Source: Escherichia coli
GTDB taxonomy: Bacteria > Pseudomonadota > Gammaproteobacteria > Enterobacterales > Enterobacteriaceae
Length of the DNA stretch: 64,000 nucleotides
Reading direction: 5' to 3' (one strand)
NCBI RefSeq assembly: GCF_041886205.1
Contig: NZ_CP169029.1
How positions within the stretch are numbered: position 1 is the stretch's first letter; every line of letters begins with the position of its first letter. Both the position numbers and the translations under genes were made by a program. Below, one piece after another: positions 43,503-45,324 of this stretch. Under the pieces are notes generated by a model. That model saw only the letters and a list, made by a program, of their open reading frames with translations. It did no database searches and was not told the origin of the DNA.

Positions 43503-44210
<708 letters not shown>

Positions 44211-44382
44211 TGCTTTCAGCCCGCGTTGTCGCGGGCTTCCCATCTATAATCCTCCCTGATTCTTCTCTGATATGGTGCTAAAAAGTAACCAATAAATGGT
44301 ATTTAAAATGCAAATTATCAGGCGTACCCTGAAACGGCTGGAATAAACCGTTTTCAGCGCATTCACCGAAGGAGGGAAAAGG

Positions 44383-44742
44383 ATGCTGCAAATCCCACAG
44401 AATTATATTCATACGCGCTCAACGCCTTTCTGGAATAAACAAACTGCGACTGCCGGCATATTCGAACGTCATCTTGATAAAGGAACGCGCCCGGGGGTTT
44501 ACCCACGCCTTTCCGTTATGCATGGGGCGGTCAAATATCTCGGCTACGCTGATGAACACAGTGCAGAGCCTGATCAGGTGATCCTTATCGAAGCGGGGCA
44601 GTTTGCGGTGTTCCCTCCAGAAAAGTGGCACAACATTGAAGCCATGACTGACGATACTTATTTCAACATTGACTTCTTCGTGGCTCCTGAAGTCCTGATG
44701 GAAGGTGCGCAACAACGGAAAGTCATTCATAACGGGAAATGA
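44383..44742 (+). CDS. yeaR: DUF1971 protein YeaR
   Basis: ORF track 119 aa; first gene of yeaR-yoaG pair. Confidence 0.85.
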   Translation: MLQIPQNYIHTRSTPFWNKQTATAGIFERHLDKGTRPGVYPRLSVMHGAVKYLGYADEHSAEPDQVILIEAGQFAVFPPEKWHNIEAMTDDTYFNIDFFVAPEVLMEGAQQRKVIHNGK

Positions 44743-44745
44743 ATC

Positions 44746-44928
44746 ATGGGCAAAGCAACGTATACCGTGACCGTCACCAATAACAGTAATGGCGTTTCTG
44801 TCGATTATGAAACAGAGACGCCGATGACTTTGCTGGTGCCAGAAGTGGCGGCTGAAGTGATAAAAGATCTGGTGAATACCGTGCGTTCTTATGACACGGA
44901 AAACGAACATGATGTTTGTGGTTGGTAA
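44746..44928 (+). CDS. yoaG: DUF1869 small protein YoaG
   Basis: ORF track 60 aa; 3 nt after yeaR stop. Confidence 0.75.
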   Translation: MGKATYTVTVTNNSNGVSVDYETETPMTLLVPEVAAEVIKDLVNTVRSYDTENEHDVCGW

Positions 44929-45075
44929 TTATCACTGATCGTTGATGGCGCAATTTCTGCGCCATCGCAAAAAAATCCTCCGTGATGCTCGTCACAAATC
45001 TTGCCCTCCCGATGTTGTGCTATGCTTTTTATCAGCGACTAACCCGCTAATGCAAAACAGATAAGTGAGGAAACA

Positions 45076-45324
45076 ATGGGCATTCTGTCATGGATTATTT
45101 TTGGGCTTATTGCCGGTATTCTGGCGAAGTGGATCATGCCAGGTAAAGATGGTGGTGGATTCTTTATGACTATCCTGCTGGGGATAGTCGGTGCTGTAGT
45201 CGGCGGATGGATCAGCACGCTGTTTGGCTTTGGTAAAGTCGATGGCTTCAATTTTGGCAGCTTCGTGGTTGCCGTTATTGGTGCGATTGTCGTGCTATTT
45301 ATCTACAGGAAGATTAAAAGTTAA
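45076..45324 (+). CDS. yeaQ: GlsB/YeaQ/YmgE-family small membrane protein
   Basis: ORF track 82 aa; two TM, Gly-rich. Confidence 0.85.
   Translation: MGILSWIIFGLIAGILAKWIMPGKDGGGFFMTILLGIVGAVVGGWISTLFGFGKVDGFNFGSFVVAVIGAIVVLFIYRKIKS

Follow-up and report, generated by a model that had tools for sequence, protein, structure and literature searches.

The yeaR-yoaG promoter of Escherichia coli K-12 has reportedly been studied by transcription start mapping and mutational analysis, in work by Lin, Bledsoe & Stewart in 2007 and by Squire et al. in 2009. It contains a single NarL site of the 7-2-7 type, TAACCAATAAATGGTA, which is centred at −43.5 just 5′ of an intrinsically weak −35 element, and a NarL dimer bound at this site is part of a transcription activation complex determined by cryo-EM at 3.2 Å (PMC10853779). 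NarL activates transcription there by recruiting RNA polymerase via the alpha C-terminal domain (PMC10853779), and one NarL dimer is enough for full activation (PMC10853779, PMC7419079). In addition, yeaR is known to be regulated by NsrR and is induced 160-fold by anaerobic growth with nitrate (PMC5320621), and its predicted NsrR site has been given as AAATGGTATTTAAAATGCAAATT (Mehta et al. 2015, PMC5320621, Table 4).

Related architectures have been described for each of the two regulators. At the FNR-independent ogt promoter, as at that of yeaR, a 7-2-7 site lies directly against the −35 element and induction needs no activator besides NarL, whereas two NarL sites in tandem are needed at ogt and one at yeaR (PMC7419079). 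Similarly, NsrR, a regulator of the Rrf2 family, has 11-1-11 operators, for example at ytfE (AAGATGCATTTAAAATGCATCTT), hmp and hcp, with which the yeaR operator shares its geometry, and its position weight matrix (PWM) score lies in the range of the ChIP-positive sites. The yeaR operator differs from these in the degenerate sequence of its left half-site, AAATGGTATTT, which is degenerate because it doubles as the right heptamer of the NarL site, and in the absence of a peak in the NsrR ChIP-seq data from strain CFT073.

The window, by which we mean the whole stretch of 64,000 nucleotides that was analysed, contains this locus in the gene order leuE-yeaR-yoaG. The leuE-yeaR intergenic region spans 172 bp (44211-44382), the end of the leuE/LysE gene at 44210 being agreed upon by the open reading frame (ORF) listing and Pfam, and yeaR and yoaG can be taken as one operon because yoaG starts 3 nt past the yeaR stop codon. 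Of 5426 complete E. coli genomes, 5419 contain a match to the 701 bases around the site, and the RefSeq annotation beneath the match reads leuE, yeaR and yoaG. The locus, the NarL 7-2-7 sequence and the gene order are those of the E. coli K-12 yeaR-yoaG promoter, and the −43.5 geometry fits canonical hexamers; no difference from the K-12 promoter has been found, and the strain of the window departs from other E. coli outside the regulatory core.

The region is the well-studied yeaR-yoaG promoter of E. coli, activated by NarL and repressed by NsrR, and as such it is already known. It has been dissected genetically, solved by cryo-EM with NarL and put to wide use as a part of nitrate and nitric oxide biosensors, so that little is left for discovery. 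The useful outcome is a corrected map, in which the true NarL site is placed and a supposed NarL heptamer is reassigned to the −10 box. With high confidence, we read 44286-44337 as the core of the yeaR-yoaG promoter, composed of a weak putative sigma-70 promoter and two overlapping regulator sites that integrate two signals (Table 1).

Table 1. Features of the yeaR-yoaG promoter region, with mean identity to the window over 21 non-Escherichia loci
Feature	Position in window	Position relative to +1	Strand	Basis	Mean identity
40 bp upstream of conserved block					0.28
NarL 7-2-7 activator site, TAACCAA-TA-AATGGTA	44286-44301	−51 to −36, centre −43.5	+	Exact match to the cryo-EM site	0.89
NsrR operator, 11-1-11 inverted repeat, AAATGGTATTT-A-AAATGCAAATT	44294-44316, centre 44305	−43 to −21, centre −32	+	Published site, PWM	0.82
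Putative −35 hexamer, TTTAAA, weak (4/6), inside NsrR operator	44302-44307	−35 to −30	+	Inferred from the −43.5 geometry	0.86
Putative −10 hexamer, TACCCT	44325-44330	−12 to −7	+	Inferred from the −43.5 geometry	0.89
Putative transcription start, G	44337	+1	+	Computed from the −43.5 centre	
Leader					0.35
5′-terminal leader hairpin, GCUGGAA-(8 nt)-UUUCAGC	44337-44358	Starts at inferred +1	+	Minimum-free-energy fold	
Shine-Dalgarno, AGGAGG, 7 nt ahead of yeaR ATG	44370-44375		+	Read from sequence	
yeaR CDS, Pfam DUF1971	44383-44742		+	ORF list, RefSeq annotation, Pfam	
yoaG CDS, Pfam DUF1869	44746-44928		+	ORF list, RefSeq annotation, Pfam	

The NarL site and the promoter geometry

The sequence at 44286-44301 is identical to TAACCAATAAATGGTA. 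It starts 4 bp 5′ of the interval 44290-44382, which the first-pass annotation had put forward as the NsrR/NarL control region of yeaR-yoaG; that proposal has proved sound. Compared with the consensus TACYYMT-NN-AKRRGTA, the NarL site is a poor match, with agreement at 10 of 14 positions and 4 mismatches, and it is equalled or bettered at 231 positions of the window, so a consensus scan alone would miss the true site. By consensus the site is indistinguishable from background; its identity rests on published experiment. The method lesson is that the consensus scan for NarL puts the true site at background, while the NsrR PWM, like the phylogenetic footprint, picks out the control region cleanly.

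The promoter geometry was computed by setting the NarL centre of −43.5 between 44293 and 44294. From this anchor would follow the exact positions of the −35 hexamer, the −10 hexamer and the transcription start, with a spacer of 17 bp between the hexamers, both of which occupy canonical and conserved positions. The scaffold used for cryo-EM carried the native sequence up to +1 and gave an RNA that begins with G (PMC10853779), in keeping with a start at 44337.

No promoter or terminator was found in a consensus scan for sigma-70 promoters and terminators over 44000-45100. The promoter was missed because the putative −35 and −10 hexamers match TTGACA and TATAAT at just 7 of 12 positions, as is expected for an activator-dependent promoter. 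The two hexamers are thus assigned, provisionally, from the −43.5 geometry and from their conservation rather than from independent consensus support.

Conservation of the core and the identity of the putative −10 box

Species-representative genomes were scanned for the locus, which yielded 26 full orthologous loci from Escherichia, Citrobacter, Salmonella enterica subsp. arizonae and diarizonae, and Silvania. Their alignment sets the limits of a conserved block at 44286 and 44330, on both sides of which the flanks have diverged. In the −10 hexamer, the orthologues carry TACCCT, TAACCT or TACTCT, with the variation at positions 3 and 4, and T1, A2 and T6 are retained in 25 of the 26, Silvania being the exception. 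The C at position 3 of TACCCT is replaced by A in 9 of the 26 loci (Salmonella and part of Citrobacter).

This pattern bears on an earlier reading of the same bases. The first-pass annotation had singled out the heptamer TACCCTG (44325-44331) as a NarL site, and nitrate control could accordingly be imagined to act through it. The heptamer agrees with TACYYMT at 5 of 7 positions, and NarL is able to bind single or irregularly arranged heptamers at other promoters. However, its 2 mismatches place it at background, as TACCCTG occurs 10 times in the window, counting both strands, and heptamers with one mismatch or none to TACYYMT number about 11 per kb. The published NarL site lies elsewhere, and a single dimer there suffices. 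Further, TACCCTG would occupy −12 to −6, where an activator could not work, and the C that NarL requires at position 3 is the very base that has changed in the nine loci, while the T, A and T of a −10 box are kept in all but Silvania. We consider it extremely improbable that TACCCTG mediates the nitrate response; the heptamer is better read as the putative −10 hexamer TACCCT followed by a G.

Alternatively, TAAAAT at 44304-44309 could serve as the −10 box, with a start at about 44316, in which case the TAACCAA...GGTA block would be a core-promoter or repressor site. TAAAAT matches TATAAT at 5 of 6 positions, much better than TACCCT does. Its use as a −10 box conflicts, however, with the published location of the NarL site at −43.5, just 5′ of the −35 element (PMC10853779). 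Most Citrobacter orthologues carry TTTTAAAT at the position of TAAAAT and have lost the critical A2, and the extension of the conserved block to 44330 is left unexplained by a start at about 44316. The probability of this arrangement is, in our estimate, close to negligible, and TACCCT is retained as the putative −10 hexamer.

Within the block, the NarL site itself varies in three Citrobacter loci. In C. sedlakii, a Citrobacter metagenome-assembled genome and C. amalonaticus (L006, L015 and L024), TAACCAATAAATGGTA is replaced by TGCCCCTTTTGGTGTA, about 100 bp 5′ of yeaR. The replacement has 3 mismatches to the NarL 7-2-7 consensus as against 4 for TAACCAATAAATGGTA, and the NsrR site that overlaps it still scores about 21 bits. 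A sequence nearer to the NarL consensus with the NsrR score kept is the pattern predicted by dual constraint from both proteins, and the allele looks like a possible case of binding-site turnover under dual NarL/NsrR constraint.

The NsrR operator and its overlap with promoter elements

The AT-rich palindrome quoted in the first-pass annotation, aatggtatttaaaatgcaaatt, is present at 44295-44316, and with one further base (44294-44316) it equals, letter for letter, the yeaR NsrR site predicted by Mehta et al. (PMC5320621, Table 4). For the scan of the window, a symmetrised PWM was built from the 16 ChIP-seq-positive sites of the same table, with yeaR left out. The operator scored 20.9 bits and ranked first among 63,978 positions, the runner-up reaching 10.9 bits, and its score falls inside the span of the training sites (14-31 bits). 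Among 100 first-order Markov random windows, 1 attained 20.9 bits, and 0.01 matches are expected per random 64 kb. The palindrome has thus held up as the NsrR site under the PWM scan that had been suggested as a check, its score standing well above background. The earlier judgement that the matches to consensus were weak was too pessimistic for NsrR. In their 2007 abstract, Lin et al. reportedly place the centre of the NsrR site at −32, which agrees with 44305 here.

The dyad symmetry of the palindrome was considered as evidence for an operator and was dropped. In the 11-1-11 geometry, 8 of 11 pairs are complementary, and 106 positions of the window are equal or better, so that symmetry of this degree is common by chance.

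The palindrome might, on another reading, be mere AT-rich promoter DNA, either a −35 region or a target of Fis, with no working NsrR operator and an indirect response of yeaR to nitric oxide. Such a reading draws on the commonness of the 8/11 dyad, on the CFT073 ChIP-seq experiment, in which NsrR gave no peak at yeaR (PMC5320621), and on a Fis-like 15-mer of the form G-N13-C close by at 44275-44289, a candidate Fis site; Squire et al. 2009 (reference 31 in PMC10853779) name repression by Fis at the yeaR promoter in their title, and this repression is reported to compete with NarL. The authors of the ChIP-seq study, however, count the missing peak as a false negative, because yeaR was already known to be NsrR-regulated, and yeaR is treated as such in the literature (PMC5320621). 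The PWM score exceeds anything else in the 64 kb by 10 bits. In addition, the top PWM match falls at the same offset in all 26 of the orthologous 3.3-kb loci, with scores of 11.4-24.2 bits, and this includes Silvania, where the flanks are unrelated, yet the NsrR site AAGTCGCATTT-T-AAATGCATTTT scores 23 bits. We therefore regard plain AT-rich DNA as a very unlikely account of the palindrome and retain it as an NsrR operator.

The NarL site overlaps the left half-site of the NsrR operator by 8 bp. With positions taken from the published −43.5 centre, the operator takes in the putative −35 hexamer as well as the NarL heptamer nearest to it. An operator that lies over core promoter elements is what is expected for a repressor such as NsrR, and its position appears compatible with repression. 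Because the operator covers both elements, NsrR would block RNA polymerase and NarL alike, and occlusion is therefore the mode of repression that the overlap of the sites suggests.

The two signals act as follows. When nitrate or nitrite is present, NarL is phosphorylated by the sensor kinases NarX and NarQ, and a NarL dimer on its site at −43.5 recruits RNA polymerase by way of the alpha C-terminal domain, with FNR not being needed. As long as nitric oxide is absent, NsrR, an iron-sulfur repressor, would sit on its operator centred at −32; nitric oxide nitrosylates the NsrR cluster, and NsrR is released.

The leader and the flanking sequences

The predicted transcript begins with a hairpin that starts at the inferred +1. 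The orthologues, too, have a hairpin at a distance of 0-4 nt from the +1 position, but its stem differs in sequence (CAGCGA/UCGCUG in Citrobacter and CAGCGAUG/UAUCGUUG in Salmonella), and it has been kept while the rest of the leader has diverged. The z-scores from single-sequence folds are weak, at −0.1 to −2.6, and the fold of the leader, with a z of about −1.4 to −2.1, is not significant alone. An Rfam scan of 44150-45100 returned nothing but a chance 9-bit tmRNA fragment. It seems doubtful to us that the hairpin is a functional element, for example in mRNA stabilization or 5′-end protection or in translation gating, or that the Citrobacter allele of the NarL site represents real site turnover. 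Further downstream, the alignment of the upstream regions indicates that the purine-rich Shine-Dalgarno block has been kept in the orthologues.

Directly past the leuE stop codon, a GC-rich hairpin, AGCCCGCG-TTGT-CGCGGGCT, occupies 44218-44237 and has been kept in the orthologues with altered stem bases. It is probably the terminator of leuE; it has no T-run, and for this reason it gave no call in the terminator scan. Another hairpin, GATGGCGCA-(6 nt)-TGCGCCATC, lies 3′ of yoaG at 44943-44966. What follows it on the + strand is a run of A and not of T, which makes its orientation odd for a terminator of yeaR-yoaG.

Within E. coli, 5416 of 5426 genomes carry the 60-mer that spans the promoter core (44281-44340), 4546 of them in identical form, and the adjacent 60-mer (44221-44280) was detectable in just 2447 of the 5426. 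Strain GF3-3, the sole variant that was aligned, has two differences in the core 60-mer, at 44285 and 44338, both outside all elements of the core. The spacer at 44241-44280, which separates the terminator-like hairpin of leuE from the promoter of yeaR, is hypervariable among E. coli genomes, and strain E69 (L001) carries an unrelated-looking sequence there. Outside the enterobacterial loci, the assembly of Alkalicoccobacillus porphyridii, of the Bacillus group, includes a 234-bp contig of very low coverage (0.8) whose encoded fragment shares 95% identity with E. coli YeaR, and this contig is most likely contamination.
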